A stretch of 64,000 nucleotides of DNA from a candidate division WWE3 bacterium (GTDB lineage: Bacteria; Patescibacteriota; WWE3; UBA101185; UBA10185). A program made the position numbers and the translations under genes. Below, one piece after another: positions 5,280-63,929 of the stretch; position 1 is the first letter of the stretch; each line of letters begins with the position of its first letter. The stretch is from the NCBI GenBank assembly GCA_052035175.1, contig JBPOHV010000001.1:169569-233568 (forward strand). Direction: 5' to 3'. The notes beneath the pieces are model-generated. The model was given only the letters and a program-made list of their open reading frames with translations. It did not search any database and was not told the origin of the DNA.

Positions 5280-5286
5280 CTTTTCT

Positions 5287-5313
5287 GGGCTTCCTGGCGA
5301 TGCCAGGAAGCCC
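5287..5313 (+). terminator. stem-loop downstream of secreted-protein gene
   Basis: Perfect inverted repeat GGGCTTCCTGGC/GCCAGGAAGCCC with a 3-nt loop. No clear U-tract. Confidence 0.35.
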
Positions 5314-5350
5314 ATCAAACATACCTTGCTTCTAGTGGTAAAATCCATGC

Positions 5351-7418: not shown

Positions 7419-7425
7419 TGATAAA

Positions 7426-29308: not shown

Positions 29309-29773
29309 CTAAGTGAAATTTTCCAAATATTTTTTTATATTCTCACCTTCGTCTTGAATATGTTTCTTGGCAACGTCGGTCTTCACAAAGAACTGAAAAA
29401 TTTTATCTATTAAGCCCGCCCGATTGCCATACTCAACGTACGCAGTCAGTTTGGATGTATTTTTTGAAACACTTTCTATAGAAAAATATCCCATCCCAAA
29501 GTTGAATAAAGAGAAAGGAAACGCTGGTTCATATTCAATATACTCATTCTTTTTTATTTTTGTGACTTTAAGGATTAAATAAAGAGGAAAACCACCGATT
29601 TTCTCCAAAAAGTGGAAAACACACCCACGCTGATTCAAATCTTGAAAGATCACTTTACAAAAAACATGATCTTTAGGATGCCAGGTTTTGTAAAGAGTAT
29701 CTATACGAGTAAGAAAGTTAAAAACGCTTTGAGTATTGGCATTAATAATTGTTTCTTGTTTGATGATTATCAT
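29309..29773 (-). CDS. hypothetical protein
   Basis: 154-aa ORF, no motif. Confidence 0.3.
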   Translation of the reverse strand: MIIIKQETIINANTQSVFNFLTRIDTLYKTWHPKDHVFCKVIFQDLNQRGCVFHFLEKIGGFPLYLILKVTKIKKNEYIEYEPAFPFSLFNFGMGYFSIESVSKNTSKLTAYVEYGNRAGLIDKIFQFFVKTDVAKKHIQDEGENIKKYLENFT

Positions 29774-32951: not shown

Positions 32952-34139
32952 TCAACAATCTGTTCCAAGTCCACCAACACAATTTTCAGTTGGTGGTGTT
33001 CCTCGCTCTGGACATTTCTCCGAATACATACACGCTATATCTGTTACCGAGTCGATCTGCTTTTGCATCGTTGCTTGATCTTCTGAACCATATGAAATAA
33101 CGATTCTATCAAGGTCAGTAAATTCATACTCACCCAACTTATCGTTTAGTTTGCCATTCACGTATAATTTCAACGTATTTTTTTCATCACTGCAATACTG
33201 CTTTTTATCATCAGTCACAAAACAATTCTTGTCAAAGCCAATGCCAATAGTTTTGAAGAAATACCCAAGCGTTACACCCTGGCGATGCTTGTGCGTAACG
33301 TCTCCATTACCATCATGCAAATGAGCATAAGGGTCTAGAGGTGCTTCCTTTGAATCTTGATATTTGGCCGAGGTGAAATCAAAAGCTTTTCCATTAAGAT
33401 ATACCTTAAAATCAGCATGCTCATGAACCTTGTCCCCAAGTACTGGTTCACCAAGTTTCGGAGCTTTGAGAATTGCAGCTTTAATGAGAGTCTTAAAATC
33501 GTCAGGAGTCTTTGGATTTTGGATTTTCTCACCGTTTAGGAAAAATGTTGGTGTCCCAGTGTTACCGAGTTTTTCTCCAGATGCCTTGTCTCGCTCAACC
33601 CTATCTTTCACTTCCTTTGAGACCACATCTTTTTTAAATTGTTCAATATTTAATCCAATTTGTTTGGCGAAGCCTTCAAAAATGGCTGGATCAGCTACTG
33701 GTTTCTCACCCCAAGTTTTTTGATTGTCAAACACAATATTGTGCATCTCCCAGTACTTTCCTTGACGGCTTGCGGCTTCTACAGACAAAGCTGCCTGCAT
33801 ACCATTTTTGTGTCCAGGAAGGGGAAAGTATCGATTTACAAACCGAACATCATTTTTGAACTCTTCTGAGAGTTGTTTCATAAGTGGATAGTATGCTCCA
33901 CAGGCTTCACACTCAAAGTCAAGATATTCAATGAGGGTAACTGACGCGTCTTTATTTCCTTTAATATATTCGTCAGCAGCAACCTCTAGTAGTTGCTTTT
34001 TATCATCAGAAAGTACAGCTTGGCCGGTTGGTGCATTACTGCTTGTTAAATTAGACTTGTTGGCAAAGAAAATAATTCCAGCAAATATTGCAATAGTAAT
34101 GCCAACTACACTTAAAATAAATTTCCTATCACTTGTCAT
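32952..34139 (-). CDS. DsbA-like thiol-disulfide oxidoreductase with Cys-rich C-terminal extension
   Basis: TM anchor. 'FECEACGAYYP' CxxC in a thioredoxin-fold context. Extra C-terminal ~150 aa with five Cys. Confidence 0.5.
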   Translation of the reverse strand: MTSDRKFILSVVGITIAIFAGIIFFANKSNLTSSNAPTGQAVLSDDKKQLLEVAADEYIKGNKDASVTLIEYLDFECEACGAYYPLMKQLSEEFKNDVRFVNRYFPLPGHKNGMQAALSVEAASRQGKYWEMHNIVFDNQKTWGEKPVADPAIFEGFAKQIGLNIEQFKKDVVSKEVKDRVERDKASGEKLGNTGTPTFFLNGEKIQNPKTPDDFKTLIKAAILKAPKLGEPVLGDKVHEHADFKVYLNGKAFDFTSAKYQDSKEAPLDPYAHLHDGNGDVTHKHRQGVTLGYFFKTIGIGFDKNCFVTDDKKQYCSDEKNTLKLYVNGKLNDKLGEYEFTDLDRIVISYGSEDQATMQKQIDSVTDIACMYSEKCPERGTPPTENCVGGLGTDC

Positions 34140-43993: not shown

Positions 43994-44170
43994 ATGGGAA
44001 GAGCAATACGTAAGGTAACTACAACTAAAAGAAAATCTCCGAAAACCCCTACTCCTTTATTGTCTCTTGAAGAGCAACTGAAAGTTTTTGCCAATGTTAT
44101 CGTAGATAGAATCTTAGAAGAACAGCAAAACGGCAATGTTTTATTGAGTAAGGAGAAACAGCATGGATAA
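43994..44170 (+). CDS. small basic protein, possible excisionase / recombination directionality factor
   Basis: 58-aa ORF absent from the ORF track. Its stop overlaps the recombinase ATG (44163). Confidence 0.3.
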   Translation: MGRAIRKVTTTKRKSPKTPTPLLSLEEQLKVFANVIVDRILEEQQNGNVLLSKEKQHG

Positions 44171-45848
44171 TGTAGCACGCCAAGAAAATGCGGTTGCAGC
44201 AATTCGAGTATCTTCTATTAAACAAGGCCTACAAGGCGATTCTCCAGAGCACCAAAAGGAGCAGATAGAACGCTTCGCCCAGGCTCATAATATTCATATT
44301 AAGAAATTCTTTATTTTCATGGAATCGGCTTCAAAAGAGGAACAGCCAGTCCAAGAAGCTATAGATTATTGTAAAAGTTCAAAAAATAACATTCAACTTT
44401 TCGTTATCAAATCTATAGATAGATTTACCCGCGGGGGTTCATACCTCTATGACCATTTAAAGATGCAACTAGTGAAATACAACGTTCAACTAGTGGATAT
44501 TTACGGGGTAATTGGTAGTCAGGAAGTAAACACCCTTGAACATTTGGGGATTGAATATGACTGGAGTATATATAGTCCAACCAAAAAGTCAGAAATCCTT
44601 GAAGCCGAAAGAGCAAAAGATGAGATGCGAGATATTATGACCAGAATGATTGGTGCAGAAATTCGCTATGTCCGATTGGGATTTAGAGTTCGGCGTGCTC
44701 CCTACGGTTATATGAACGAAAAAGTTGAAACCTCACATGGTAAACGAGTTATTCTAAAACCCCACCCCGAAGAATCACAGTGGATTTTAAAAATGTATGA
44801 ACTTCGTTGTCGAGGTACGATGACTGATCAGCAGATTGTAGACGAAATAAATACATTGGGTTTTCGTTCTAGAAAACAATATAGACGAAATCCTCAAGAC
44901 AGGACTAAAGTCATCGGTGAAACAGGTGGAAATAAACTTATCCTTAAACAATTCTGGCGTTACGTTGAAAGTCCTATCTATGCAGGGGTAAATGTTGAGA
45001 AATGGACAAATGGTCAGCCAATAAAGGGTAAGTTTCAAGGTTTAGTACCTATTGAAATGTATAACAAAGCAAACAAAGGCAAAGTCACTCTCACAGAAGA
45101 AGCTGGTGAAGTACGATTATGGAAAAGAAAGCCAGCAGAATGGTACATAAAGAAAGATCCAAACAATCCAGCATTTCCCTATAAAAAGTATGTCACCTGC
45201 ACTCACTGTCAGAAACCTTTTTTTGGAAGTACTTCAAAGGGTAAAAGATTAAGATATTCTGCATACCATTGTAATAGGGGGCATAAATACTACCGTGTAC
45301 CAGTAAGTGAATTTAACGAAACTATTGAGACCTTCGTAAAGGGTGTAAAGCTAAATATGACCCCTGAATATATTGAAGAACTGAAAAAGTATGTTCTAGA
45401 GGCTTGGAATAGCCGTACGGAAGGAATTAAAAAGGATGCAGTAAACATTGATACAAAAATTCAGGAACTACAAATGGCATCGAAAGCTACCGCAGATAAG
45501 ATACGCTTTCTCAGTTCAGAAGTAGCCATCAAATATATGGAAGACGATTTAGTAAAGATTGATGGGGAAATAAAGCAATTAGAAGAAACAAAGGTTCAAA
45601 AAGATACAAAATCTACAAATATGGAGTTAGTGATGAAATACATAGAATACTTTTTGGAACACCTTGAAGATTTATTGCTGGGAAGCCCAAACCCTCTTAA
45701 AAGAGCTGCCTACTTTGGCCTACTCTTCGATGGACTGCCTACATATCAAGATTTGTGTTTTGGAACACCTAAATTAGCACCATATTTAGGACTAAAACAG
45801 CAGTTTGCTACTGCCTTACTCCCTAATGGTGACCCCACGGGGAGTTGA
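44163..45848 (+). CDS. large serine recombinase (integrase)
   Basis: N-terminal resolvase domain with catalytic Ser context 'AAIRVSSIKQG'. Recombinase domain, then zinc ribbon 'CTHC...YHCNRGH', then coiled-coil. The 3' end runs 22 nt into tRNA-Glu. Confidence 0.8.
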   Translation: MDNVARQENAVAAIRVSSIKQGLQGDSPEHQKEQIERFAQAHNIHIKKFFIFMESASKEEQPVQEAIDYCKSSKNNIQLFVIKSIDRFTRGGSYLYDHLKMQLVKYNVQLVDIYGVIGSQEVNTLEHLGIEYDWSIYSPTKKSEILEAERAKDEMRDIMTRMIGAEIRYVRLGFRVRRAPYGYMNEKVETSHGKRVILKPHPEESQWILKMYELRCRGTMTDQQIVDEINTLGFRSRKQYRRNPQDRTKVIGETGGNKLILKQFWRYVESPIYAGVNVEKWTNGQPIKGKFQGLVPIEMYNKANKGKVTLTEEAGEVRLWKRKPAEWYIKKDPNNPAFPYKKYVTCTHCQKPFFGSTSKGKRLRYSAYHCNRGHKYYRVPVSEFNETIETFVKGVKLNMTPEYIEELKKYVLEAWNSRTEGIKKDAVNIDTKIQELQMASKATADKIRFLSSEVAIKYMEDDLVKIDGEIKQLEETKVQKDTKSTNMELVMKYIEYFLEHLEDLLLGSPNPLKRAAYFGLLFDGLPTYQDLCFGTPKLAPYLGLKQQFATALLPNGDPTGS

Positions 45849-45901
45849 ACCCCGATTACCAGATTGAGAATCTGGTGTCCTAACCGCTAGACGATGGGGC
45901 C
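45827..45901 (-). tRNA. tRNA-Glu (anticodon CUC)
   Basis: Reverse complement folds as a cloverleaf. Acceptor GGCCCCA/UGGGGUC, D-arm GTCT..GGAC, anticodon stem CCAGA/TCTGG with loop TTCTCAA, T-arm GGGGT-TCAACTC-CCCGT (first T-stem pair G·T), encoded CCA. Confidence 0.85.
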
Positions 45902-50101: not shown

Positions 50102-50175
50102 TGGGGGATCGTCTAATGGTAGGACATCGCACTCTGAATGCGGTAATTGGGGTCCGATTCCCTGTCCCCCAGCCA
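50102..50175 (+). tRNA. tRNA-Gln (anticodon CUG), slightly atypical T-arm
   Basis: U1-A72 acceptor TGGGGGA/TCCCCCA as in E. coli tRNA-Gln. D-arm GTCT..GGAC. Anticodon stem TCGCA/TGCGG with loop CTCTGAA. Ends ..CCCCCAGCCA. T-stem has two G·U pairs and C at position 55. Confidence 0.55.
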
Positions 50176-51369: not shown

Positions 51370-51846
51370 ATGCAGAATAATGAAGAATACGTAAAAGATC
51401 AATTTAGAATTCTTGTTCATAGAGGACAGTTTAGAGATGTAGTAATGCATACATCGTTCATTAAAACAGTAATTAAGGACACTGCCTCAGTAACCATAAG
51501 ACCACCATTTAAAAAAGCGCTAGTGTTGTTAGGTTTAATTATTGATGACGCAGATGAAGAGAATTCATGTTATGCAGAGTCCTCGCAGCATAAAGCGAAC
51601 TACTTAGTAGAAATCAATAAGTTACGTGTTCAACGAAACAAACTTTTACATGACATTATGAGAGAGCGATTGCCACAGAAATATATAGATAACATAAGGG
51701 ACGAGATGAAAGGAAACATTTGGTTAATTTACTTTCGGTCACCACTAGTACGTAACTATTTTAAAAGTACATATGGCTATGATCCAAAGGACTTATTAAT
51801 TGTTTGGTCCAAGCATTATGGTAAATCCCAAATCATCGTGGATTAA
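51370..51846 (+). CDS. hypothetical protein
   Basis: 158-aa ORF. Confidence 0.3.
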   Translation: MQNNEEYVKDQFRILVHRGQFRDVVMHTSFIKTVIKDTASVTIRPPFKKALVLLGLIIDDADEENSCYAESSQHKANYLVEINKLRVQRNKLLHDIMRERLPQKYIDNIRDEMKGNIWLIYFRSPLVRNYFKSTYGYDPKDLLIVWSKHYGKSQIIVD

Positions 51847-51868
51847 AATCATTAGGCTTTCGATCGAC

Positions 51869-52525
51869 ATGCTCAGCCATATATCCTGGAGAAATAATGT
51901 ACAGGATAGACTTGACCTTCTACAATTAGCCACAATGACAAAAATAGAAAGTCTATTAGAATTCACTAAGTTTTGTAATAAATTCCAACAAACACAAAGG
52001 CAAATTCGAGTTGTAGGAGAAGCCCGAAAAGAGAATGATGCAGAACACAGTTTTCAAGTCGCACTCACATGTTGGTATTTGATTTCAGAATATAAACTCG
52101 ATCTGGATATAACAAAAGTTTTAAAATACGCTTTAGCCCATGATCTTCCAGAAGCTATAACTGGAGACTATTATTTCGAGCTAGATAGTCAGAAACAAAA
52201 AGAAAAAGAAGATGCAGAAAAAGTCGCAATAGATAAATTGGGCAATATGTTTCCTAACTTTGCTGAGTTAGCAAATCTATTGGAAGATTATAATAATAAA
52301 ATAGATAAAGAAGCACGCTTTGTAAATGCAACAGAAAAATTGATTCCTGTTATAAATATTTTTTTAGATAAAGGCAAAACATGGAAAGAAGAAAATATGA
52401 CTTGGGATATATTAATTCCTAATAAAGATAAAAAGATTTCTATATCAGATCTACCAAGTGAGCTATGGGAAGAATTTAAACCGATTATTGAAGAATCTGG
52501 CTTGTTACCAAAAACAAAGTCTTAG
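51869..52525 (+). CDS. HD domain phosphohydrolase (YfbR-like)
   Basis: 'AEHSFQV...ALAHDLPEAITGD' His-Asp motif. Start moved to an internal Met past the upstream ORF. Confidence 0.55.
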   Translation: MLSHISWRNNVQDRLDLLQLATMTKIESLLEFTKFCNKFQQTQRQIRVVGEARKENDAEHSFQVALTCWYLISEYKLDLDITKVLKYALAHDLPEAITGDYYFELDSQKQKEKEDAEKVAIDKLGNMFPNFAELANLLEDYNNKIDKEARFVNATEKLIPVINIFLDKGKTWKEENMTWDILIPNKDKKISISDLPSELWEEFKPIIEESGLLPKTKS

Positions 52526-52627
52526 TATTCGATAAGGAACGTATGTGCATTAACAGCGCTTTCATTTATAAAAGACTACGGTTAGAAAGAGCTAACTAAC
52601 TTCCGCAATAGTATATACTGTTATTGT

Positions 52628-53086
52628 ATGAAAGAAGTTCAAATAGATACAAACAATATTGAACAAATCGACAAGATTTTAGAAGCAGCAACGAAAGTAT
52701 TCAATCCCTCACAAGAAGAACTAGAAAAGTATCATAAGAAAGAAGTTTGGCTCAAAAAGATTTCAGATGGCGGTCTTTTAGTTTCAATAACTTTAGACAA
52801 CATGATTGTTGCTTTTGCTATATGTGAAAAGAGAAGTAATAAACTTCATATATGGAATGTTGGTGTGCTAAGCGACTATAGAAAGTTAGGTTTGTGGAAA
52901 CAAATGCACGCCTTAATCATAAAGCATGCCAAGCGGGAAGGGTTTGAAAAAATTACTTTGAATACATATAAAGAGAAATTTCCTAATATGTATACATTTG
53001 TATCAGAGCATGGTTATAAAGAAATTTCTAAAGAATTTGATGAAATGCAAAATGCAACCAAGTCCCACTTTGAGCTTATTTTATAA
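52628..53086 (+). CDS. GNAT family N-acetyltransferase
   Basis: 'IWNVGVLSDYRKLGLWKQM' acetyl-CoA-binding motif A (R/Q-x-x-G-x-G/A). Confidence 0.6.
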   Translation: MKEVQIDTNNIEQIDKILEAATKVFNPSQEELEKYHKKEVWLKKISDGGLLVSITLDNMIVAFAICEKRSNKLHIWNVGVLSDYRKLGLWKQMHALIIKHAKREGFEKITLNTYKEKFPNMYTFVSEHGYKEISKEFDEMQNATKSHFELIL

Positions 53087-53094
53087 TCCGACTA

Positions 53095-53577
53095 ATGGTT
53101 TATAATACCCATATGTATAACCACGAACCGCAAGATTATAAATGTCCTTTATGCGCTATTCGCGATGGAGTTGAAGGTGATTTCCCATACACAAAACAAG
53201 CAGATATCTTTTTTCAGGATGAAGATTTAGTTGGAATCATTGCCTCACATGGGTGGGAAACAAACAAAGGTCATGTACTAGTATTTCCAAAAAAACACAC
53301 AGAAAATATTTTTGATATTGAAGATGCACTTTTGTCTAAAATACATACCTTTGCAAAGAAAGTTGCGCAAGTATTGAAAGATGAATATAAGTGTGAAGGT
53401 ATTACAATAAGACAAAACAATGAGCAACCTGGTGACCAAGATGTGTGGCATTATCATGTCCATGTATTTCCAAGGTATATTGGAGATAATATTAATCAAA
53501 TACCAGGGTTAAGAAAGCAAAGTGATACTAAAGAACGTGCCGAGTATGCAGCTAGACTAAGAAAACATTTCTCATAA
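53095..53577 (+). CDS. HIT family hydrolase
   Basis: Histidine triad 'HYHVHVF' (HxHxHxx) near the C-terminus. Confidence 0.75.
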   Translation: MVYNTHMYNHEPQDYKCPLCAIRDGVEGDFPYTKQADIFFQDEDLVGIIASHGWETNKGHVLVFPKKHTENIFDIEDALLSKIHTFAKKVAQVLKDEYKCEGITIRQNNEQPGDQDVWHYHVHVFPRYIGDNINQIPGLRKQSDTKERAEYAARLRKHFS

Positions 53578-53595
53578 ATATACTATAATCAACAT

Positions 53596-54227
53596 ATGGC
53601 GTCAGTGTTCAAAGTAACTATCTTAGATAATTCAGCTTTACAAAACTACAAAGACAAAGCTATGGAAGAACTCGATGTGTGGTTCGAAAAAGTATGGCCT
53701 TATACTGCACCAAAGTTATTTGTCGTCGATGACAGAAAAACAATAGATGCTCTTTTGGAGCAAAAAACTGAAGATTGGGTTATGGGGTGGAGTTGGGGAA
53801 GAAACGCAGTATTTATCCTAAATCCTGCAAATATTTCTACCGAAAGCTGTCACGATGCAAGTAAATATAACTATGGACATCTAATCAACATGAGTTAGCC
53901 CATTCTTATTTTCAAATAAATTTTGGGCAATGTAATTTCGCATGGATTAATGAAGGAGTTTCTATATATGTCGCTGGGCAACTTGAAAAATATACGATGC
54001 CATTAGAATTTGATGGATTTTTGGATGACAAAAAGATATATCAAGAATCAGGAAATGCAATAAAGTTGATTGTTGATCATTTTGGGAAAGATACTCTTTT
54101 TGACTTTTTAAGAAATCAAAGCAGTATCGAAGATATATCAGAACTAAAAGAAGCTTTCAAAAAAATTTTTAATGCAGAACTGAATTATTCATTTTTTAAT
54201 ACTTTGAGAAATGAGTATTCCAAATGA
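53596..54227 (+). pseudogene. frameshifted HExxH metallopeptidase-like gene
   Basis: The frame-1 ORF (53596-53898) stops at 'HLINMS*'. An open frame-0 segment from 53871 encodes '..NQHELAHSYFQ...WINEGVSIYVAGQ' and runs into the 53997-54227 ORF. A single frameshift near 53870-53890 joins them. Confidence 0.4.
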
Positions 54228-54718
54228 ATACTAGACCTACAAAAATACTACTACTAGGTATATCGGGAGCAGGGAAGTCTACATTGGCTCCGTTGTTGGC
54301 TGAATTTTATAAACTTAATGTATATGAAGCCGATGATGAAGTAATGATAATAAACAATAATGTATGGCCACACGACGATGCAACCGTTGATAAGGGTTTT
54401 GCAATAGCAAATGAAAAAGCTTTGAATTCAGACAACATTATATTCGTTACATCTTGGCTTAATAAAAAAGATTTTCTTAAATTTGTAGAAAAAGAATTTA
54501 AAATAGTAGAACTGCACGCTGATTTAGACGAGTTAGTAGTAAGAAAACAAACGCGTGACAACTCTAGCGAAGATCACATCCTCAGATTTCGTAATGCATA
54601 TCCAGAGTACTTAGAATTAATAAATGATGCAGATCTAAAATCAAACTTTACACTAAGTGTCGATACAACACGCTTGTCTGCAGATGAACTGTTTAAATTA
54701 ATTGGCTTAAGACTTTGA
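54224..54718 (+). CDS. P-loop NTPase / nucleoside(-tide) kinase-like
   Basis: Walker A 'GISGAGKST' near the N-terminus. ~160 aa. Confidence 0.5.
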   Translation: MNTRPTKILLLGISGAGKSTLAPLLAEFYKLNVYEADDEVMIINNNVWPHDDATVDKGFAIANEKALNSDNIIFVTSWLNKKDFLKFVEKEFKIVELHADLDELVVRKQTRDNSSEDHILRFRNAYPEYLELINDADLKSNFTLSVDTTRLSADELFKLIGLRL

Positions 54719-54719
54719 G

Positions 54720-55280
54720 TTAGTTCCCAATGATTACTATATTTTTGACAACACTTTTTAAGGAGTATCCCATGAGTAAAAAATCTTCAATTATGAAATC
54801 ATGGCGCTCATCTTGGTACGAGATTACAAATGTTCTTCCTTCTTTTTGAAAAATAAATATATCTTGAAATGCAATACTTCGATCACTCATTTCTTCCTTT
54901 TTTAATGTAAAGCCTTCTATATCGTTTATTTTTACTGGGGTGTATTTGTCGTATCTTTTTAAAGTATCAGTAATATCTTCTATTTGAGATCTAACCACGA
55001 TTATTCCTATGAGCGCATCTTTTTTCTTAATCTCAAAGAATACAGTTTCATTACCATTGGGTAGATAATTATAATAACTCAAGTGTGTGTTCTGATCTGC
55101 ATTATATATGAAATGTTTGAAAGTCTCAGGATGGTATTTCCTAAAAACTCTTTGAGAAATAAGAGATACAAATGTACAACTTAGGCCGATAATAACAACA
55201 CAACAACCGACAGCAAAGAGCTTTTTGAAGATACTTTTACTATGATCTTCAGGTATCATAGCTATATTATATAGCATCAA
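54720..55280 (-). CDS. membrane-anchored hypothetical protein
   Basis: One TM helix (CCVVIIGLSCTFVSLI). Confidence 0.3.
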   Translation of the reverse strand: MMLYNIAMIPEDHSKSIFKKLFAVGCCVVIIGLSCTFVSLISQRVFRKYHPETFKHFIYNADQNTHLSYYNYLPNGNETVFFEIKKKDALIGIIVVRSQIEDITDTLKRYDKYTPVKINDIEGFTLKKEEMSDRSIAFQDIFIFQKEGRTFVISYQDERHDFIIEDFLLMGYSLKSVVKNIVIIGN

Positions 55281-55285
55281 TACTT

Positions 55286-55774
55286 TTATAAGTACTCAGG
55301 ATATAGTTTCAATCCTTCAAGTAACATCTTATGCTTGATCTCACTAGAATTAATTATTTGTTCTTTAGTTAAAGCTTGTGGGTTTTTTACATCAGCTCCG
55401 TACGGTTCCATAACTTTCTTACCTTTTGCTAAGAAAAAAAGTATGTGTCCTAACTTTGGGTATTTGTTTTTGAACTTTTCTGGCGCATCATCTTTTAAAG
55501 AGATTTCATAATAGCCAAAGTACTTCCACTGATTCAATTCTATTCCACCTTCTTCTAGTGCTTCGCGTTTCAATGCATCATCTATTGTTTCACCAGCTTC
55601 TACATGTCCGCCGATAGGCTCATTGTTCATAAGAATTACATTATTATTTTGATCAAAACACACACTAACTACACCAGTTGTATTTTTGATTAAATCTTTG
55701 TAATCTCCATTCAAATCTATATATGCCTTATAAGTTGAATGTCCCCAATCTTGTGTATCTATCAACACTTTCAT
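55286..55774 (-). CDS. NUDIX hydrolase
   Basis: Nudix box 'GGHVEAGETIDDALKREALEEGGI' (Gx5Ex7REUxEExGU). Confidence 0.7.
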   Translation of the reverse strand: MKVLIDTQDWGHSTYKAYIDLNGDYKDLIKNTTGVVSVCFDQNNNVILMNNEPIGGHVEAGETIDDALKREALEEGGIELNQWKYFGYYEISLKDDAPEKFKNKYPKLGHILFFLAKGKKVMEPYGADVKNPQALTKEQIINSSEIKHKMLLEGLKLYPEYL

Positions 55775-55884
55775 GCACTTATTGTAGCATCGCTAGTGAA
55801 TGGTTAGTTTATAATATTTCAATGAGCTTATTGTGCTATACATTTTCTACATTTCCAGATATACAGTTTATAGAAAGACATAAT

Positions 55885-56256
55885 ATGTTTGTATTTCACA
55901 AACTAAAGTCAGACTTAATTGCATTTCTATCTCTTATAGAAAAAGTACAGCCAGATATAATTGTAGGTATTGCAAAAAGCCCTAACAGCAAGTCAAGGTT
56001 TGAACGAATGGCTATCAATAAGTTTAATCGTACGAAGTTGATAAATAAATCTGGAGAACCTTCGTATAAATTAAGCTATCCTGCTGAAGGTTATAAAAAT
56101 ATTTCTTTACACAAGTCTTATACTGATAGCTTTTGTAACTGGGTAATGTACAAGCTTTCTGAGCATTTATTGGAAAAAAGTATTCCACTACAGTTCATTC
56201 ATGTAGCTCCAAAAGATATCGATATTCTAGACGAATACCTGAAGTCTCTTTCATAA
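55885..56256 (+). CDS. hypothetical protein
   Basis: ORF trimmed to an internal Met to avoid overlap with the NUDIX gene start. Confidence 0.3.
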   Translation: MFVFHKLKSDLIAFLSLIEKVQPDIIVGIAKSPNSKSRFERMAINKFNRTKLINKSGEPSYKLSYPAEGYKNISLHKSYTDSFCNWVMYKLSEHLLEKSIPLQFIHVAPKDIDILDEYLKSLS

Positions 56257-56275
56257 AATGATACTCTATTAACGT

Positions 56276-56419
56276 ATGGAATTATCCACAGATCAACAAA
56301 AAGCGTTAAACCAACTTCTGAAATGGTTTAACAATAAAAATAAAAATCAATACATCACACTCGGTGGTTATGCTGGTACAGGAAAAGGAGAGATGCGGTT
56401 ATATGTTGTAGGTATCTAA
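56276..56419 (+). pseudogene. truncated 5' copy of the RecD/Dda-like helicase gene
   Basis: Encodes MELSTDQQKALNQLLKWFNNKNKNQYITLGGYAGTGKG then stops. ~85% nt identity to 61294-61410. Confidence 0.55.
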
Positions 56420-56983
56420 TGGTTTCCATGTTTGTATTACTTTATTAGTATTTGAATCAACTATAAAATAATTACCACCATTATTTTCTGGTTGACTGTA
56501 TATAATACTTATCGTTTTTTTCAGTAAATATGACATATATAGTGCACCGACAGCACCATGACTAATTACTAAGATATCTTTATTTGAACTTTGCATAACA
56601 ATATCGGCTATTGTTTTTACTATACGCTTTTGTGCATCAGTAGCTGATTCCCATCCGCACACATTTTTCGTTGGATACTGGAAAAAGCTATTTACGTTAT
56701 GCATAAATGTCTCGTAGGGTTGGTACCCAGTAGATGTTCTATCAAATTCGCCTAATGATTTTATTTTTGTATAAGGCTTATTAAGATATGCACTTGCAAT
56801 ATCAGCGCCATCAACAGCTTTTTGTTCTTCGCTAGTAAAAATCTGATCAATTTTACTAAACCAACTTTGAAGATTAATCTTTTTAAATCTGTCTTTACCT
56901 TTTTCAGAAAGTGGCCATTTCTCAATCAATTCATTTTTATCTATTTCTACATCAGTGTGAGTTAAAAAAAATAAATATGACAT
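56399..56983 (-). CDS. histidine-phosphatase-superfamily-like protein
   Basis: C-terminal 'LVISHGAVG' resembles the phosphoglycerate-mutase-family second His motif. The N-terminal RHG motif is not canonical. Confidence 0.35.
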   Translation of the reverse strand: MSYLFFLTHTDVEIDKNELIEKWPLSEKGKDRFKKINLQSWFSKIDQIFTSEEQKAVDGADIASAYLNKPYTKIKSLGEFDRTSTGYQPYETFMHNVNSFFQYPTKNVCGWESATDAQKRIVKTIADIVMQSSNKDILVISHGAVGALYMSYLLKKTISIIYSQPENNGGNYFIVDSNTNKVIQTWKPLDTYNI

Positions 56984-57056
56984 ATGTAGTACTTTGTATG
57001 AGTATTATACATAACATAAATGCTAATTTGGTAGGTCATGGTAGAATACCACAGGT

Positions 57057-57608
57057 TTGAGTAAACATATGATTTTAACTGGTTCAAAAATAGTAGAGGA
57101 ATTACATAATGGTTATATTACTTTAGTGCCATTTGAAGAATCTTTAATTAATCCCAATAGTTATAATTATCGACTCGGCACTGAAATAGTAGAAATAACT
57201 TACGATACAACAAATATTAATACTAGTCCTCAAAAAAACACCATTGTAATTCCAAATGAAGGCTATGTCTTACAGCCCCAAAAACTTTATTTGGCTGCAA
57301 CGCATGAAATAATCGGATCCACAAAGTATGTTCCTAGTCTAATAGGCAGATCTTCTTTAGGTAGACTTGGTTTATATCTTCAAATTACTGCTGATTTGGG
57401 TCATATAGGCACCTGCCATAAATGGACTTTGGAGTTGACTGTGGTACAACCCTTACGTGTATATGCTGGTATGAGGGTAGGCCAGGTTTCTTTTTGGGTG
57501 ACTGATGGTTTAGAAATGTTAAATGGGCATGAATACAAGAGTGAAAAAAATAATTATGCAAAATTTAGTAAACCTATGCATAGTCAAGTACGAAAATTGA
57601 TGGAGTAA
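57057..57608 (+). CDS. dCTP deaminase / dUTPase (Dcd-Dut beta-clip fold) family protein
   Basis: 'ILTGSKI', 'NPNSYNYRLG' and 'GRSSLGRLGL' Dcd signatures. Confidence 0.7.
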   Translation: MSKHMILTGSKIVEELHNGYITLVPFEESLINPNSYNYRLGTEIVEITYDTTNINTSPQKNTIVIPNEGYVLQPQKLYLAATHEIIGSTKYVPSLIGRSSLGRLGLYLQITADLGHIGTCHKWTLELTVVQPLRVYAGMRVGQVSFWVTDGLEMLNGHEYKSEKNNYAKFSKPMHSQVRKLME

Positions 57609-58139
57609 TTGATGATATTAACAGGACCAAGAATTAAAGAAGAGTTTAAAAAGGGCAATATATTCATTGCACCTTTTAAAGACGATCAAATTAATCCTAA
57701 TTCTTATGATCTCAGACTAGGTAATGTTTTAAAAACATACAAATCTTTTGAATTAGATACTAAAAAAGAAAATGAAACTGACACTATAAATTTAACAGAA
57801 GCTGGGATAGTACTTTATCCTGATAAATTATACTTAGGGCATTCTCTCGAGACTGTTGGAAGTGATGTATATGTACCAGTGATTAGAGGAAAGTCTTCCA
57901 CTGGCAGACTAGGGTTGTTTGTACATATAACTGCTGACTTAATAGATATTGGATATAAAGGAACATACACGCTAATGCTACATGCCGTGCAGCCTGTTAG
58001 AGTTTTTCCTGGGATGCGGATTGGACAAGTTACCTTTTGGAAAGTATTTGGTGATATCAAATTGTATAAAGGGAAATATCAGGGCAGTACTGAACCATCT
58101 GCATCTCAAGTTTATAAGGACTTTAATTTGGAAGGTTAG
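57609..58139 (+). CDS. dCTP deaminase / dUTPase family paralog
   Basis: 'ILTGPRI', 'NPNSYDLRLG' and 'GKSSTGRLGL'. Its start overlaps the upstream paralog's stop (TAATTGATG). Confidence 0.7.
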   Translation: MMILTGPRIKEEFKKGNIFIAPFKDDQINPNSYDLRLGNVLKTYKSFELDTKKENETDTINLTEAGIVLYPDKLYLGHSLETVGSDVYVPVIRGKSSTGRLGLFVHITADLIDIGYKGTYTLMLHAVQPVRVFPGMRIGQVTFWKVFGDIKLYKGKYQGSTEPSASQVYKDFNLEG

Positions 58140-58150
58140 CTTTTAATTTT

Positions 58151-59260
58151 ATGAAAATCTTAACTGGTATAGATATACCTTTCCATCCTTTTGGCGGAAG
58201 TCCTTTAATATGTAATGATTGGTATTCAGATCTACCTTCTGATACTGAAGTAAAATTTTTGGCACTCAAGCCGACAGATATGCAACTTGATAATTGGTGG
58301 TCCATTAAAGATGTAACTTTCTTAGAAACTTTGAAAACTAAAAATGCTGATGAATATCAAAACTATATTAAAAGCTTATACGAGGAGGTATCTAAAATAG
58401 TTGAGGATTTTAAACCCGATGTTATTCATGCACAACACTTAAACTTTGGACTTTCTCGAGTATTCGCGGATTTGAGTAAAGATATACCTAAATTAGGCAT
58501 ATGTCATGGTACAGATGTTCAATGGGCCATGAAAGAAAAGTTCTTTGAGGAAAACCTGATATATATTTCAGATAACTTAGATAAATTACTTTTTCCAGCA
58601 GAAAACATGGCGAAAGACTTTTTTAAAATATATAAAAAAGAGAAGCCTTATGTAATTAATCCTCATGGAATACCTGATAATTACTATGTAAATACTTTGA
58701 TAAATCCTTCTTATGATGGAAAAGATCCATTAAAGGTATTATACGCTGGCAGATTATTATCTATAAAAGGAGCACATATAGTAGTTGAATCTCTTGCACA
58801 TACTAGAAATGCTGTTGAATTAACAATCATTGGGAATGAAGATGAGAAAGGTTATAAGGGCTTATTAAAAGCCATAGTAAAAAAGCATAATTTAACAAAT
58901 GTTATTTTCAAGGATCAAATTTCTAGAAGCAATTTAATTAATAGCTTCAAAAACTATGATTTAGTTGTATTCCCATCTATTGCTATAGAAGCTTTTTCTT
59001 TAACATCTATAGAAGCACAGGCTTCAGGTTTACCTGTAGCATATGCTGAAGCTGGTGGAATAGCTGATGCGGTAGGGGGTTCAGGTATTATCATCAGTCC
59101 AAATACACCACAAGCACTAGCAAAGATTTTTGATGGTATTTTCATCGACCCACTACTTTTAAAGCAATACCAGTTACTAGGTTATGAAAATGCGAAAAAA
59201 TTTAAACTATCCGAAAAAAAGGATAAATTATTCAAGATTACCGCTGATCTTTTGAGGTAG
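58151..59260 (+). CDS. GT-B glycosyltransferase (GT4/group-1-like)
   Basis: C-terminal 'FPSIAIEAFSLTSIEAQASGLPV' E-x7-E motif region. Confidence 0.65.
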   Translation: MKILTGIDIPFHPFGGSPLICNDWYSDLPSDTEVKFLALKPTDMQLDNWWSIKDVTFLETLKTKNADEYQNYIKSLYEEVSKIVEDFKPDVIHAQHLNFGLSRVFADLSKDIPKLGICHGTDVQWAMKEKFFEENLIYISDNLDKLLFPAENMAKDFFKIYKKEKPYVINPHGIPDNYYVNTLINPSYDGKDPLKVLYAGRLLSIKGAHIVVESLAHTRNAVELTIIGNEDEKGYKGLLKAIVKKHNLTNVIFKDQISRSNLINSFKNYDLVVFPSIAIEAFSLTSIEAQASGLPVAYAEAGGIADAVGGSGIIISPNTPQALAKIFDGIFIDPLLLKQYQLLGYENAKKFKLSEKKDKLFKITADLLR

Positions 59261-59265
59261 ATCTT

Positions 59266-59970
59266 TTATATTGGAAAGGTTTTATATACTTTGAAGTTTT
59301 TTTCAGACTCGTTTTTTATTACCATTGTGAGGGAGTTCATCTCTAGTTTTACCGATGTGTCAAATAATTCTGAAATATTTTTCTCGAGTGCGGGCATTTC
59401 TGAGTCTTCAATAAAAACAGGATTTAATAGTGTAAAGTGTGGTTTAAAATGTTCAAAAATGTATGGTGCATAAAACATCTTTATCTTTTTGACCTGGTCA
59501 GGCAAGTACTTAATATCATTTTCTGCAGTTTGTTTTTCTAGAAGATTTACATATAGTGAACCTCTTCCTAGTATTTGTATTGTACTAACTAACACATCAT
59601 GAAGAGTTTTCACATTATCATTAGGTATTAACCTAATAGCTAATTGAGTTTTATTTTTTGGCCAAAATCCAATTTCTTCTACATTGAGTGTCAGTTCTAA
59701 GTTCTTAGAAAATGTGTTTAGAACATTTTGTATCTTTTGTTCTATTACAGGTAAATCACTTTCATTTATAGTTACTGCATCAGTCATAGTCATATGAAAT
59801 CCGTAAACACTGGACTCTGTTACCCAGGCTTTTTTTATAAATGAATTTAAATTTATATGCTTTTGGTTAAGAATGTCGTAGCCTATTATTTCTGACCCCG
59901 TTTTATAATAATCTGTTTCAAATGGGATATAATATAATCCAAATAGCATTTGCATATTATTATGACACAA
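59266..59970 (-). CDS. 2H phosphoesterase superfamily protein (LigT-like)
   Basis: Two H-x-T-x motifs ('FHMTM', 'PHFTL') about 100 aa apart. Confidence 0.45.
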   Translation of the reverse strand: MCHNNMQMLFGLYYIPFETDYYKTGSEIIGYDILNQKHINLNSFIKKAWVTESSVYGFHMTMTDAVTINESDLPVIEQKIQNVLNTFSKNLELTLNVEEIGFWPKNKTQLAIRLIPNDNVKTLHDVLVSTIQILGRGSLYVNLLEKQTAENDIKYLPDQVKKIKMFYAPYIFEHFKPHFTLLNPVFIEDSEMPALEKNISELFDTSVKLEMNSLTMVIKNESEKNFKVYKTFPI

Positions 59971-60879
59971 AGACGTATAAAAAAAGCACTTATTTCAGAT
60001 GCTGGTATGGCAAGCAGATATTTACCAGTTCTTAAAGCTTCCCCTAAGGGATTACTACCATTACTTAATAGGTCAATAATGGATTGGGTATTACTTGAAT
60101 GCAAAGAGGCAGGAATTGAAGAAATAATTATTGTTACAAGTGTTAACAATGTTGAGAAATATGAGCAGTATTATCATGACTCTGCACAACACATTAAGGA
60201 TGCATTACAAAAACAAAACAAACTTGAAAGATATGACGGTATAGTTGAGTTATTTTCATTGCCAAAGATAACTATAATAGCCCAATCTGTAGATTTACCA
60301 TACGGAACAGCTGCGCCACTAGTTACTGCTCGCCAATTTTTAGATAAAGAAGAAGGGTTTGTTTTTTGTCAGGGAGATGATGTGATTTTGGGTAAACATA
60401 AAGATGTAGCAAAGATGATAGAGTTGTTTAACAGCAACGCTGACCTTGCAGGTGTAATAATGACACAGGCGACTCCCGAAAACGAACTACATAACTATGG
60501 TGTAGTTAAGCTGAGGAATTCTGGTCTTTTAGAAGAGATTGTCGAGCGACCATCGAAAGGCAGTGCTCCCTCCAGATTAGTGTCTTATGGAAGATATTTG
60601 TTAACTCCTGAAATCTTTAAATATACTGAAGAAAGAAAGAGTAACCCTAATACTGGAGAATTTATGTTAGTTGACGCAATTACAAGTCTTGCTGTTAATC
60701 ATGATGTGTTAGTTGGCAAAACTGATGGTTTATGGCTTACAACAGGCGATCCAGTTAATCATTTAAAAGCACAAATAGCATTTGCATTGAATGATGAAAA
60801 ATATAAACATTCTATACAAGATTTTATTGATATTGAGTTAAAAAAGCTCTATGCGACCTCATTACCAGTGCACAAATGA
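59950..60879 (+). CDS. sugar-1-phosphate nucleotidyltransferase (GalU-like)
   Basis: N-terminal 'KALISDAGMASRYLPVLKASPKGLLPL' (G-x-G-T-R-x-LP-x-TK-like pyrophosphorylase motif). Confidence 0.6.
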   Translation: MHIIMTQRRIKKALISDAGMASRYLPVLKASPKGLLPLLNRSIMDWVLLECKEAGIEEIIIVTSVNNVEKYEQYYHDSAQHIKDALQKQNKLERYDGIVELFSLPKITIIAQSVDLPYGTAAPLVTARQFLDKEEGFVFCQGDDVILGKHKDVAKMIELFNSNADLAGVIMTQATPENELHNYGVVKLRNSGLLEEIVERPSKGSAPSRLVSYGRYLLTPEIFKYTEERKSNPNTGEFMLVDAITSLAVNHDVLVGKTDGLWLTTGDPVNHLKAQIAFALNDEKYKHSIQDFIDIELKKLYATSLPVHK

Positions 60880-61226
60880 AAATGAAGTTGATTAACTTCT
60901 TGGCGATTACCACCATTAATTAATAAAGTATATTCTTGCCATTCTAATTCTTTTACCAGTTCTTTTACTATCATGAATACTTCGTTGATATAAGTCATAT
61001 CTTCTTGCTCTAATGAGACTATATTCTTAATTTTCTTTTTAGGTACGATTAAAATATGTTTGTCCCAAAATGGCTTTGGATGCCAAAATGCGACTACTAG
61101 GTCATTTTCAAAAACTTTTTTTACAGGTAATACCTTACTAAAAGATTCAAAGGTTGTGCCTACTATAAAATCACCAATAGGTGTCTTAGCCATAGTGAAT
61201 AAAAATTTGCTCAGCTTCATAGACAA
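60849..61226 (-). CDS. HIT-like protein
   Basis: Partial histidine triad 'QLHFHLC'. HIT-like size and position. Confidence 0.4.
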   Translation of the reverse strand: MSMKLSKFLFTMAKTPIGDFIVGTTFESFSKVLPVKKVFENDLVVAFWHPKPFWDKHILIVPKKKIKNIVSLEQEDMTYINEVFMIVKELVKELEWQEYTLLINGGNRQEVNQLHFHLCTGNEVA

Positions 61227-61293
61227 ATTTTACCATAGTGGTTAGTTGTAATTTCATATAAAAGTAAAAACTGATGTATTATCAAATTACACT

Positions 61294-62454
61294 ATGGAAT
61301 TATCCACAGATCAACAAAAAGCACTAAACCAACTATTGAAATGGTTTAACAACAATCACAAACCTCAATTCATAACACTCGGTGGATATGCTGGTACGGG
61401 TAAGACGACATTAATTTCAATTTTCAAAAATGAATTAATTAAAATAGATAAAAAGATGACAATCGCGTTTTGTAGTTATACCGGGCGTGCAGCGCAAAAC
61501 TTGAAAAATAAATTAAAAGAACACAAAGCGATTTCGTCAAAAGATACAATCAGTACAATACACGGATTAATTTATAATCCTATCGAAAATTCAAATGCAG
61601 AAATTGTCGGGTGGGAAAAGAAAGAATTACTCGAGCATAGCCTTATTATAGTAGATGAAGCGTCGATGATAGACGAAGTTATTTGGAGAGACTTACTTTC
61701 TTATAATGTGCCGATCGTGGCAGTAGGGGATCATGGTCAGTTACCTCCTATAAAAGGCAAGTTTAATCTCATGGAAAATCCAGAAATCTTGTTAATAGAA
61801 ATACACAGACAAGCTAGAGATAATCCGATAATCAAAGTTTCAGAATACGCACGTACATCTGGAATTGTACCAGCACAAGAATTTGATACAAATGTAGCAA
61901 AGTATTCTCGAGAAGATCCTTATGTGCAATCAATCAGTAATGAATTGTTAGAAAATTACACAACAGATACACTGATATTGTGTGGCTATAATTCGACACG
62001 TACAAAGCTGAACCAGTATATTAGAAATAATCTAGGCTTTGAAAGTGCATTACCAGAATCTGGTGATAGAGTTATTTGTTTACGAAATAATAATAAAAAA
62101 GGAATATATAACGGAATGCTTGGGACAATTACTAATATAAATCTTAAAGAAACAGATTGGTACGACGCAGAAATCCAAATGGATGATAATACGAGACCGT
62201 ATGCCGGTCTCATTTACGCTCCTCAATTTGGTGCAACTACTGCAATTAATTTTACCGAAAATCGAAAGCACGCGATGAAAGGCGACTTATTTGATTTTGG
62301 TTATGCAATGACAGTCCACAAAGCACAAGGTAGTCAAGCAAAGCGTGTGATTATGTTTGAAGAAAGATTTAAACAAATGGACGACGATATGTGGAAGCGT
62401 TGGTTGTATACAGGTATAACACGCGCACAAGAAGAATTATTTTTGTTTGGTTAA
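61294..62454 (+). CDS. RecD/Dda-like superfamily-1 DNA helicase (AAA_30 + UvrD_C-like)
   Basis: Walker A 'GYAGTGKTT'. Walker B 'LIIVDEASMI'. C-terminal 'TVHKAQGSQ' motif. Confidence 0.7.
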   Translation: MELSTDQQKALNQLLKWFNNNHKPQFITLGGYAGTGKTTLISIFKNELIKIDKKMTIAFCSYTGRAAQNLKNKLKEHKAISSKDTISTIHGLIYNPIENSNAEIVGWEKKELLEHSLIIVDEASMIDEVIWRDLLSYNVPIVAVGDHGQLPPIKGKFNLMENPEILLIEIHRQARDNPIIKVSEYARTSGIVPAQEFDTNVAKYSREDPYVQSISNELLENYTTDTLILCGYNSTRTKLNQYIRNNLGFESALPESGDRVICLRNNNKKGIYNGMLGTITNINLKETDWYDAEIQMDDNTRPYAGLIYAPQFGATTAINFTENRKHAMKGDLFDFGYAMTVHKAQGSQAKRVIMFEERFKQMDDDMWKRWLYTGITRAQEELFLFG

Positions 62455-63929
62455 TAAGCAGCAATCCGCTTATAAAAATAGACTTTTGGATTTATATAAA
62501 TATTGAAGGGGTACTCAATAATTTTTTCTTCAAGAAGTAGATATTTATCTTTGTATCGACCATTAACTTCTGGTGAATCATAAGAGAATTCATATAAGTA
62601 TTTTCTTTCTTCATTTTTGTAATTCAATTTCCACGCGTTTGTGCCAAGTACAAGCACTGGGTTGATACGTTCATTGTTTACAGTTTGAACTGATTTATTC
62701 CAGATATATTTATTTACTAATACAAAGTCCATTGTCATCTGATAAGTGAAAAAGCCTATGAATGCTATAAAAGTACATATTAAAAGTTTATTGATTTTGG
62801 AAAGTTCGATACTTTTGATAAAAAATAAAATCGCAAATGGAATTATTGTAAGTAAGTATCTGTCATAAAAAGTTTCAGAAAGTATCATCAGCCCGAGATA
62901 TAGCGTGACAAATATTATATTGAAATCGATATATCTTCTCTTATATATAACTACTGCGATTGCAGGTAAAGACAAACTTATTAATATTTTTGACATTTGA
63001 TCCCAATATCTATATAAATCGTAATTCCATCTGAATTGATATTTCGTCCCTATCACGCCACGTGGGTATAGCCCTGTGCGCTCCCAAATGTTTTCAAAAT
63101 ATGGAAACTCGCCCCATGAGACTTTCATTGGTTGAAACTGTGAGTTTAAAAAATAGAGACACATTATGCCACATACCACTATTAAAACGATGTTTCTTTT
63201 TGATAGTTTAGTGTATGTGTTTAAAATAAATGCAATTATTAATGGCATCAGCAGTGCATATATCACAATCAATGATCCATACACCAATGCGAATGAATAG
63301 TCACGGTCAAATAAATGCGCCGTTTGCAATGGCTTCTCAAACATTTCAGCAGTTCGTGGAAATAACCACATATAATACCCATATAGAGTCAAGAAAAGGG
63401 AAGTAAACAAAAAACAATTTTTATAATCTCGTTTAAACATGTAAAAGATAGCCAAAGCCACGATAAATACAAGAGCTGCTTGCTTTACAAAAAAAGCTGC
63501 AATCAGACTTACACATAGAGTTAACAATACTTTTGGATTATTATTCTTTTCTTGTTCATATAAATGAAAAGCATATGTTGCGACAAGTAAAAAAAATAAC
63601 AAATAATTTTCTGTCATAAACCCAATCGAAGAATATGAGAACCATGGATTAAATAACAACAGCAATCCTACGACAAAGCCCCAAAAAATATTTTTTAAAT
63701 AGAATTTATTCAGAATAGCAACGAATACTAGATACGTGCTTATAGATATAATAAGAGTTAGTATTGGAAGACTATATAAACCAAAAAGCTTCGCAAATAA
63801 ATATGCCAAAAGACCTTGCACATAAAATGTAGGAGCAACCAAAGAGTTTAACGAAAAGTCGCCTCGTAAGAAGCTCTCAACAGTTTTGTAGTAGATCCAG
63901 TCGTCATTTTGCATAAAAGAGATAAACAT
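62451..63929 (-). CDS. GT-C family polytopic membrane glycosyltransferase (ArnT/PMT-like)
   Basis: ~12 TM helices with an N-terminal-loop acidic motif. Typical length. Confidence 0.45.
   Translation of the reverse strand: MFISFMQNDDWIYYKTVESFLRGDFSLNSLVAPTFYVQGLLAYLFAKLFGLYSLPILTLIISISTYLVFVAILNKFYLKNIFWGFVVGLLLLFNPWFSYSSIGFMTENYLLFFLLVATYAFHLYEQEKNNNPKVLLTLCVSLIAAFFVKQAALVFIVALAIFYMFKRDYKNCFLFTSLFLTLYGYYMWLFPRTAEMFEKPLQTAHLFDRDYSFALVYGSLIVIYALLMPLIIAFILNTYTKLSKRNIVLIVVCGIMCLYFLNSQFQPMKVSWGEFPYFENIWERTGLYPRGVIGTKYQFRWNYDLYRYWDQMSKILISLSLPAIAVVIYKRRYIDFNIIFVTLYLGLMILSETFYDRYLLTIIPFAILFFIKSIELSKINKLLICTFIAFIGFFTYQMTMDFVLVNKYIWNKSVQTVNNERINPVLVLGTNAWKLNYKNEERKYLYEFSYDSPEVNGRYKDKYLLLEEKIIEYPFNIYINPKVYFYKRIAAY

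Follow-up and report, generated by a model that had tools for sequence, protein, structure and literature searches.

The locus described here raises the question of how the beginning of one helicase gene came to stand on both sides of a block of seven enzyme genes. It lies in a 64,000-nucleotide (nt) stretch of contig JBPOHV010000001.1 from a candidate division WWE3 bacterium, the whole of which is called the window, and comprises a helicase stub at 56276-56419, a gene cassette at 56399-61226 and an intact helicase gene at 61294-62454, where the 5' end of the intact gene is repeated in the stub. We give about an even chance to the reading that this repeat is the recombination scar of an acquisition of the cassette without a recombinase, by means of homology in the helicase 5' end, where a Campbell-type single crossover and homology-facilitated illegitimate recombination (HFIR) are taken jointly as the route.

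Two copies of a helicase gene start

A repeat search over 50-64 kb found a direct repeat pair at 56268-56385 and 61286-61403 (both on the + strand), with a length of 118 nt, an identity of 85% and a spacing of 5018 nt. Both copies were also recovered by alignment and by blastn, in which 111 nt were aligned at 86.5% identity with an E value of 7.6e-33. The next-longest direct repeats in the searched region reach at most 39 nt at 67-83% identity, and the 118-nt pair is far beyond chance. The blastn search of the window gave no third copy, so that there are two copies only, and the repeat search gave no inverted-repeat pair linking ~56.39 kb with ~61.29 kb.

An earlier, sequence-only reading of this DNA had proposed direct repeats of ~85% identity at 56276-56390 and 61294-61410. 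The repeats and their identity are confirmed by the searches, and the extents require a small correction, where the true ends are ~56388 and ~61406. The DNA 5' of the two ATG codons cannot be aligned between the copies; the similarity begins essentially at the ATG and stops at codon 37/38, within the Walker A motif, between GTGK and the following T. The opening that the same reading had described as common to both copies is ATGGAATTATCCACAGATCAACAAAAAGC, which corresponds to 29 identical nt from the ATG.

The upstream copy is indeed a stub of 47 codons, as had been claimed, with its open reading frame (ORF) at 56276-56419 (+). Codons 1-37 are helicase-like (MELSTDQQKALNQLLKWFNNKNKNQYITLGGYAGTGK) and are followed by nine unrelated codons and a stop codon; the C-terminus of the stub reads GYAGTGK-GEMRLYVVGI-stop, whereas the intact gene continues as GYAGTGK-TTLISIF. 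The helicase-like part is free of stop codons and retains all the conserved helicase residues, and its variable patch, NNKNKNQY, resembles the NNKDKNQF of the relatives at loci L007 and L009. The exact 47-amino-acid (aa) product had no match in the protein collection. From the sequence and the alignment, a non-homologous junction of ~10 nt (56389-56398) lies between the point where the helicase similarity stops and the stop codon of the first cassette gene, a histidine phosphatase. The downstream copy continues into a full RecD/Dda-like helicase, also as described before, at 61294-62454 (+). This intact protein of 386 aa is a Dda/RecD2-like member of helicase superfamily 1B (SF1B) with AAA_19, AAA_30, UvrD_C_2 and SH3_13 domains; its P-loop (Walker A) is GYAGTGKT, and its matches in the PDB are RecD2 (3e1s) and Dda (3upu).

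The selection tests on the two copies span the 37 shared codons, which is 111 nt. By the Nei-Gojobori method, 16 nucleotide differences were counted over these codons, 11 of them synonymous and 5 non-synonymous, and the comparison of the stub with the intact copy gave a synonymous divergence (dS) of 0.81, a non-synonymous divergence (dN) of 0.06 and a dN/dS ratio of 0.07. Under a fully neutral null, 16 random substitutions produce 12.7 non-synonymous changes on average, and the probability of five or fewer is 5e-5. The differences are clustered (P = 0.005) and give the alignment a mosaic form, where nt 1-29 are 100% identical and nt 30-111 are 80.5% identical. In nt 30-111, the stub is 81.7% identical to L007 and 80.5% identical to L009, against 80.5% to its own partner, and within nt 1-29 L007 differs from both copies at 4 positions.

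Because the divergence outside the 29-nt core is at the level of orthologues and mostly synonymous, the copies come from two once-functional helicase genes. The divergence between these genes, which arose with both under purifying selection, is about that seen between genera. The stub is accordingly the relic of a second helicase allele, and its truncation is recent relative to the divergence of the two helicase genes.

This divergence bears directly on the suggestion of the sequence-only reading that the target had been duplicated upon insertion. In a true target-site duplication, the 5' 115 nt would have been copied in situ when the insertion occurred, and the stub would have decayed since. 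The direct repeats exactly flank the insert, as they do around inserted DNA in the target-site duplications of transposons and insertion sequences (IS). Such duplications are short (2-15 bp) and identical. In contrast, the repeat here is 118 nt long and 85% identical, with a divergence like that between orthologues, and neither a transposase nor terminal inverted repeats are present. As a null, in-situ duplication was modelled with neutral decay of the stub and with synonymous changes alone in the full gene. This null was rejected (P = 0.003), and 47% of the simulated stubs gained a stop codon, while the real stub has none in its 37 helicase-like codons. When the codons were polarised by eye against those of L007 and L009, K21N, D22H and N24P were derived in the full copy; these are three of the non-synonymous changes, so that most amino-acid changes arose in this copy and not in the stub. 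Moreover, outside the 29 nt, the stub is as near to foreign orthologues as to its partner. Together with the 80.5% identity outside the core and the low dN/dS ratio, these results do not bear out a duplication of the target, which we consider extremely improbable.

The difference between the copies could also have a technical cause, since its extent is that seen between strains or between species and the source, a contig of 925,229 bp without cultured relatives, is probably metagenome-derived, with uncultured metagenome-assembled genomes as the closest helicase relatives. The arrangement would then stem from a metagenome assembly in which sequences of two strains or species were joined into a chimera. 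On reasoning, however, a mis-join of the assembly graph at shared sequence would give one hybrid helicase, not a stub with a non-homologous end and a full copy 5 kb away. The flanking genes are all intact, and the order of the cassette matches that in independent assemblies. An assembly artefact is therefore regarded as very improbable.

The enclosed cassette and its possible route of entry

The interval 56399-61226 is filled by seven genes, all of which had been listed by the sequence-only reading; only the class of the glycosyltransferase in that list has to be changed. The first gene, at 56399-56983 (-), encodes a histidine phosphatase of branch 1 (PF00300, E 3e-13), which is full length, with 194 aa compared to 193-195 aa in relatives. 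Two dCTP-deaminase-fold paralogues follow, DCD1 at 57057-57608 (+; PF22769, E 4e-29), where the true start is probably the ATG ~12 nt downstream of the called start, and DCD2 at 57609-58139 (+; PF22769, E 3e-40; TIGR02274 with 108 bits, above the cut-off). The fourth gene, at 58151-59260 (+), encodes a GT-B-fold glycosyltransferase matched by Pfam Glycos_transf_1, which we take to be CAZy family GT4 and not GT1, as had been stated. It is followed by a DUF1045-like 2H phosphoesterase at 59266-59970 (-; PF06299, E 4.5e-8; TIGR03223 with E 5e-11, below the cut-off), the translation of which contains two HxT motifs, FHMTM and PHFTL. The sixth gene encodes a GalU-like sugar-1-phosphate nucleotidyltransferase at 59950-60879 (+; PF00483, E 1e-25; TIGR01099 galU with E 2e-42, below the cut-off), and the seventh, at 60849-61226 (-; PF01230, E 8e-15), encodes a HIT-family protein and is divergent from the helicase gene. 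All seven products are metabolic enzymes, and the ORFs in 56399-61226 contain no recombinase, integrase or transposase domain.

The full cassette of seven genes is found in the same order and orientation in ~15 contigs (L013-L025 and L034), with different flanks. The identities to the orthologues in these contigs are 50-55% for the histidine phosphatase, 69-79% for the DCD proteins, 68-71% for the GT4 enzyme, 54-57% for the 2H phosphoesterase, 59-67% for the nucleotidyltransferase and 70-73% for the HIT protein. The histidine phosphatase orthologues occupy the same position in L013-L019 and L034, and the HIT orthologues in L018, L025 and L034 agree with the HIT gene here in both position and strand. 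The DCD1-DCD2-GT4 core is present in ~40 loci with sequence, in most cases with the 2H gene after it on the other strand, and the identity of the GT4 protein falls to 34% among these loci. In the GT4 search, a discrete family of ~95 proteins was obtained at E 1e-41 or better, and the wider GT4 family includes members from Verrucomicrobia and Myxococcota. No recombinase accompanies the core across the ~40 loci. The bracketed interval corresponds to exactly one conserved cassette unit, with its left junction ~10 nt from the stop codon of the histidine phosphatase gene. The earlier suggestion that recombination into the start of the helicase gene placed the ~5-kb block here is supported in that the block is a cassette conserved as a unit in unrelated neighbourhoods.

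In the acquisition that we favour, two helicase alleles would have met, one resident and the other having travelled in with the cassette. When a circular DNA with a 5' gene fragment integrates into a chromosome by a single crossover (insertion-duplication), the gene is truncated in the upstream copy and complete in the downstream copy. In the Campbell route, the circle would have carried the cassette, the upstream intergenic region and nt 1-~115 of the helicase gene. A single crossover with the resident helicase gene would have taken place within or beside the 29-nt identical tract, which would be the crossover or heteroduplex region. The product would consist of a truncated upstream copy ending where the carried fragment ended, the insert, and the full gene behind a new upstream region; nt 30-115 of the stub would then be derived from the element, with the body of the intact gene as the resident part. 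As in laboratory Campbell insertion-duplication, the truncated copy lies upstream and the intact copy downstream, and the layout here may be its natural equivalent.

In the HFIR route, a linear fragment bearing the cassette and a helicase gene would have been anchored by homology inside or beyond the helicase, with an illegitimate join to the resident gene at its codon 38. In this case, the stub would be the resident copy, the incoming DNA would have supplied the start of the intact gene, and the two copies would have become identical over the 29 nt through later gene conversion. Such an integration of foreign DNA, in which one end is anchored by homology and the other is joined illegitimately, is outlined in PMC3240628. 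Either route is consistent with what was found, where a truncated and an intact copy flank the insert in direct orientation, the truncated copy ends non-homologously, and the copies derive from different alleles, with the stub as near to L007 and L009 as to its partner. Both processes are known mainly from laboratory work, with naturally competent bacteria or suicide plasmids, whereas here the process is read from a natural scar. The recombination route, the assignment of the resident copy, which differs between the two routes, and a donor in which the cassette lay beside a helicase gene are inferred.

Several observations weigh against an acquisition of this kind. The selection statistics were obtained from 111 nt only. 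A search among relatives for helicase loci without the insert, as had been advised, found no empty site, but it carries little weight in either direction: none of 13 relatives' helicase loci, at 52-83% amino-acid identity, has a stub or a flanking gene in common with the window. Neither did a metagenome scan for an empty site by means of the left-flank protein return any match. The helicase lies beside the cassette in 0 of the ~40 loci, which means that no donor-like arrangement was seen, where close relatives are poorly sampled; no donor for a scar in this Patescibacteria/Saccharibacteria-like genome was identified among these loci. In addition, the codon usage of the cassette is native-like (r = 0.95 with the genes at 0-19 kb), and neither the codon usage nor the GC content at third codon positions (GC3) gives a sign of recent import. 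The event therefore involved a donor of similar composition or is not very recent at the scale of amelioration.

A native-like codon usage would fit long residence of the cassette between two full helicase genes, which might have been old paralogues or a resident gene and a xenologue gained earlier. In such a case, a deletion would have taken the upstream gene from codon 38 to the stop of the histidine phosphatase gene, and gene conversion would have made the 29 nt identical. This relic of a resident paralogue accounts for the ortholog-level, mostly synonymous divergence as well as for the abrupt junction. However, it needs two redundant helicases to be maintained under selection in a 0.9-Mb genome, and a second helicase copy or fragment was found at none of the 13 relatives' loci. 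It also leaves unexplained why the deletion ended ~10 nt from the outer gene of the cassette and why exactly one conserved unit lies between the copies. We consider a paralogue relic fairly unlikely.

The layout can further be compared with the islands at dusA, in which the 5' end of the target is replaced and the original 5' end is left at the far boundary (Farrugia et al. 2015, PMC4482086). In architecture, these islands are the closest known system. As in dusA islands, the insert lies at the 5' end of a coding gene, which receives a new 5' end and so remains intact, and the displaced 5' end forms a stub at the far boundary; imperfect flanking direct repeats with a conserved core are likewise common to both (PMC4482086). 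An integrase-mediated island of this type at the helicase 5' end, with its integrase lost or acting in trans, would thus match the architecture, with the orphan 5' end (56276-56388) at the outer boundary, a new 5' end on the intact gene and a 29-nt identical core within diverged repeats. The window contains a recombinase that might act in trans, of the large serine type, at 44163-45848.

Nevertheless, dusA islands have their own tyrosine integrase beside the target and a 21-bp semiconserved att site, while the repeat here is ~115 nt long and no integrase lies inside or adjoining the 5-kb unit. Unlike in dusA islands, the target is a Dda/RecD2-like helicase and the cargo is one conserved metabolic operon. 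At ~20 other cassette loci for which both flanks are available, neither a helicase nor att-like repeats were found, with the exception of L039 and L040, where a third repeat copy lies nearby. The serine recombinase gene is 10 kb away, beside a separate type IV secretion system (T4SS) region. Serine recombinases act at very short crossover sites and are not known to yield gene-end repeats of 115 nt. An origin of the dusA type is thus judged unlikely. In general terms, scars of this kind are known from island boundaries, and the present one is a variant that is unusual in that no recombinase is present and that the cargo is a conserved, uncharacterised enzyme cassette.

If the acquisition through helicase homology is true, the locus would record, in a natural and datable scar, how an ultra-small genome gained genes without a recombinase, and ~115 nt of homology to a conserved gene would suffice to install a 5-kb operon with the target gene kept intact. 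This bears on the exchange of metabolic modules in reduced genomes with few classical mobile elements. A wider proposal, which we regard as quite unlikely, is that DCD1-DCD2-GT4-2H constitutes an undescribed pathway by which a pyrimidine (deoxy)nucleotide is turned into a glycosylated metabolite, and that it spread in this genome without a recombinase of its own, where a surrogate 5' end of a helicase gene that is highly conserved and widely shared was carried along as a homology landing pad. If this were the case, the flanking repeats would permit a reversible pop-out that restores a hybrid helicase.

Predicted chemistry and other occurrences of the cassette

The two DCD proteins were aligned to the bifunctional dCTP deaminase-dUTPase of M. 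tuberculosis (PDB 2qxx), in which we take the Glu residue to serve deamination and the Asp residue to serve triphosphate hydrolysis. In DCD1, the Glu is kept (WTLEL) and His replaces the Asp (LGHIG compared to IDPG), while in DCD2 the Asp is kept (LIDIGY) and Met or Gln replaces the Glu (TLML). This complementary pattern occurs in all of ~25 diverse loci, with LGH(I/L)G...WTLE in DCD1 and LIDIG...TL(M/Q)L in DCD2, which suggests that the two proteins form an obligate pair or hetero-oligomer.

The best PDB relatives of the GT4 enzyme are sucrose-phosphate synthase (6kih), MshA (3c4q) and BshA (5d00), and these nearest solved relatives glycosylate small, mostly phosphorylated acceptors. It is plausible, with low confidence, that the DCD pair turns a cytidine-type (deoxy)nucleoside triphosphate into a uridine-type monophosphate. 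Similarly, the GalU-like enzyme might make a nucleoside diphosphate (NDP)-sugar donor with which the GT4 enzyme glycosylates a phosphorylated acceptor, and the histidine phosphatase, 2H and HIT proteins might trim phosphate or nucleotidyl groups; both assignments are plausible at a similarly low level of confidence. As in the pathways of sucrose-phosphate synthase/phosphatase, MshA (mycothiol) and BshA (bacillithiol), a GT4 enzyme is combined with a phosphatase, to which a candidate NDP-sugar nucleotidyltransferase is added here. Unlike in those pathways, the GT4 enzyme is coupled to two complementary DCD-fold paralogues, one of them fused to it in the protein P0181, and to a 2H phosphoesterase. 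No described pathway or function for this combination of genes was found in the literature searched. The cassette is a candidate for biochemical characterisation, given a core tightly conserved across phyla, complementary losses of active-site residues and the DCD-GT4 fusion.

The fusion protein, P0181, is a metagenomic protein of 583 aa in which DCD2 and GT4 are naturally joined, and its domain arrangement appears to tie the two activities functionally. The GT4 variants P0164, P0170, P0175 and P0187 (609-616 aa) have a C-terminal extension of ~240 aa without a Pfam match; the extension was considered as a 2H domain and rejected, as no similarity to the 2H protein could be detected.

A role in biological conflict was also considered. 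The family PF20706 ("GT4 in conflict systems"), taken from work in which Death-like and TRADD-N conflict systems are described (PMC8195603), scores 40.8 bits on the cassette GT4 protein, with a cut-off of 26, while the generic Glycos_transf_1 scores higher on the same stretch. Membership in a conflict system is not to be inferred from this weaker match. No Death-like or TRADD-N conflict partners were seen at the cassette, and the PADLOC defence models gave no match beyond noise to the cassette proteins.

Distant versions of the core occur in larger same-strand clusters at L048, L050, L052 and L053. The further genes in these clusters encode a calcineurin-like phosphoesterase, radical SAM/SPASM, FGE-sulfatase-like, PIG-L deacetylase and GT28 proteins, as well as a second nucleotidyltransferase, a kinase, and WbqC-like, EPSP-synthase-like and beta-lactamase-like proteins. 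From their predicted contents, the clusters look like small-molecule biosynthesis clusters.

Two other loci have a five-gene version of the cassette (DCD1, DCD2, GT4, 2H and histidine phosphatase) enclosed in direct repeats of 68-78 nt at 91-95% identity. The repeats lie at 7120-7197 and 10848-10925 in L039 and at 7025-7092, 10754-10821 and 13099-13131 in L040. The left copy corresponds to the 3' end of a 440-aa ORF, and a third copy of 33 nt lies 2.3 kb further on. Because of this third copy nearby, the repeat may belong to a dispersed intergenic type, in which case it would not mark an insertion. The idea that the cassette is generally flanked by repeats was rejected, since they were seen in L039 and L040 only. 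At L034, a duplication of ~500 nt (5000-5509 and 7247-7750; 75-77% identity) lies just 5' of the cassette and gives two 167-aa paralogues 2.2 kb apart.

In the window itself, a run of nucleotide-handling genes at 51800-55774 lies just 5' of the stub. It consists of an HD-type 5'-deoxynucleotidase-like gene, a GNAT gene, a HIT gene (53095-53577), a P-loop kinase gene and a NUDIX gene. Homologues of this upstream type of HIT protein directly adjoin DCD1 in L027 and L043, because of which the genes 5' of the stub may belong functionally with the cassette. An orthologous relation of the NUDIX protein in the window to the one beside the L018 cassette was rejected, as the Nudix box alone is common to them.

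The helicase family, the left neighbour and the wider window

The nearest relatives of the intact helicase are found in uncultured Saccharibacteria and other Patescibacteria. The family of 386-aa helicases (P0002-P0120; L001-L010 and L055-L057) shows 64-83% identity across Saccharibacteria, WWE3, Woesebacteria and Elusimicrobia. The neighbourhood differs in nearly every relative locus examined; L055 and L056 encode the same protein and have one downstream gene in common. High identity of the helicase in changing neighbourhoods suggests, as far as these sequences indicate, frequent horizontal movement or rearrangement. A 36-aa ORF located 5' of the L009 helicase gene was examined as a possible stub and rejected because it is not helicase-like.

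Phage Dda-like helicases are 35-37% identical to the intact helicase over its full length, and no relatives of the helicase or of the GT4 protein were found in viral contigs. A phage or plasmid origin was rejected, as phage and plasmid records match the helicase at <40% identity only. The intergenic region of 67 nt between the HIT gene and the helicase ATG (61227-61293) has no relation to the DNA 5' of the stub. It contains a weak promoter-like match at 61253-61282; promoter-like matches were fewer than in shuffled sequence, and terminator-like matches were about as frequent as expected.

The left neighbour of the stub is a gene at 55822-56256 (+) for a 144-aa protein (P0121), with its stop codon 19 nt before the stub ATG and a weak, sub-threshold Peptidase_C15 match. 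Four non-self homologues of this protein, at 35-51% identity, were found; the contexts examined, L011 and L012, are unrelated to the window and contain no adjoining helicase. On the other side, the helicase gene converges on a gene at 62451-63929 (-), which overlaps the helicase stop by 4 nt and encodes a multi-pass membrane protein of 492 aa without a Pfam match. Its codon usage is the most atypical among the gene sets compared.

Further upstream, the tRNA-Gln(CTG) gene at 50102-50175 is followed by a drop in the GC content to 0.31-0.35, which continues to the end of the window, and 3' of it lie genes for a 329-aa protein without a family match and for a weakly SLATT-like protein of 158 aa. 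The site of this tRNA gene could be an island boundary.

Separate from the stub and the cassette, the region 19165-45901 has a higher GC content, 0.39 compared to 0.32-0.36 elsewhere. It contains genes for a VirB4/TraG-like ATPase (23233-25062, -), a type IV coupling protein (40957-43503, -) and two heavy-metal P-type ATPases (29770-31683 and 34136-36451). The gene for the large serine recombinase, a protein of 561 aa (44163-45848, +), overlaps that for tRNA-Glu (45827-45901, -). The region looks like an integrated conjugative element.

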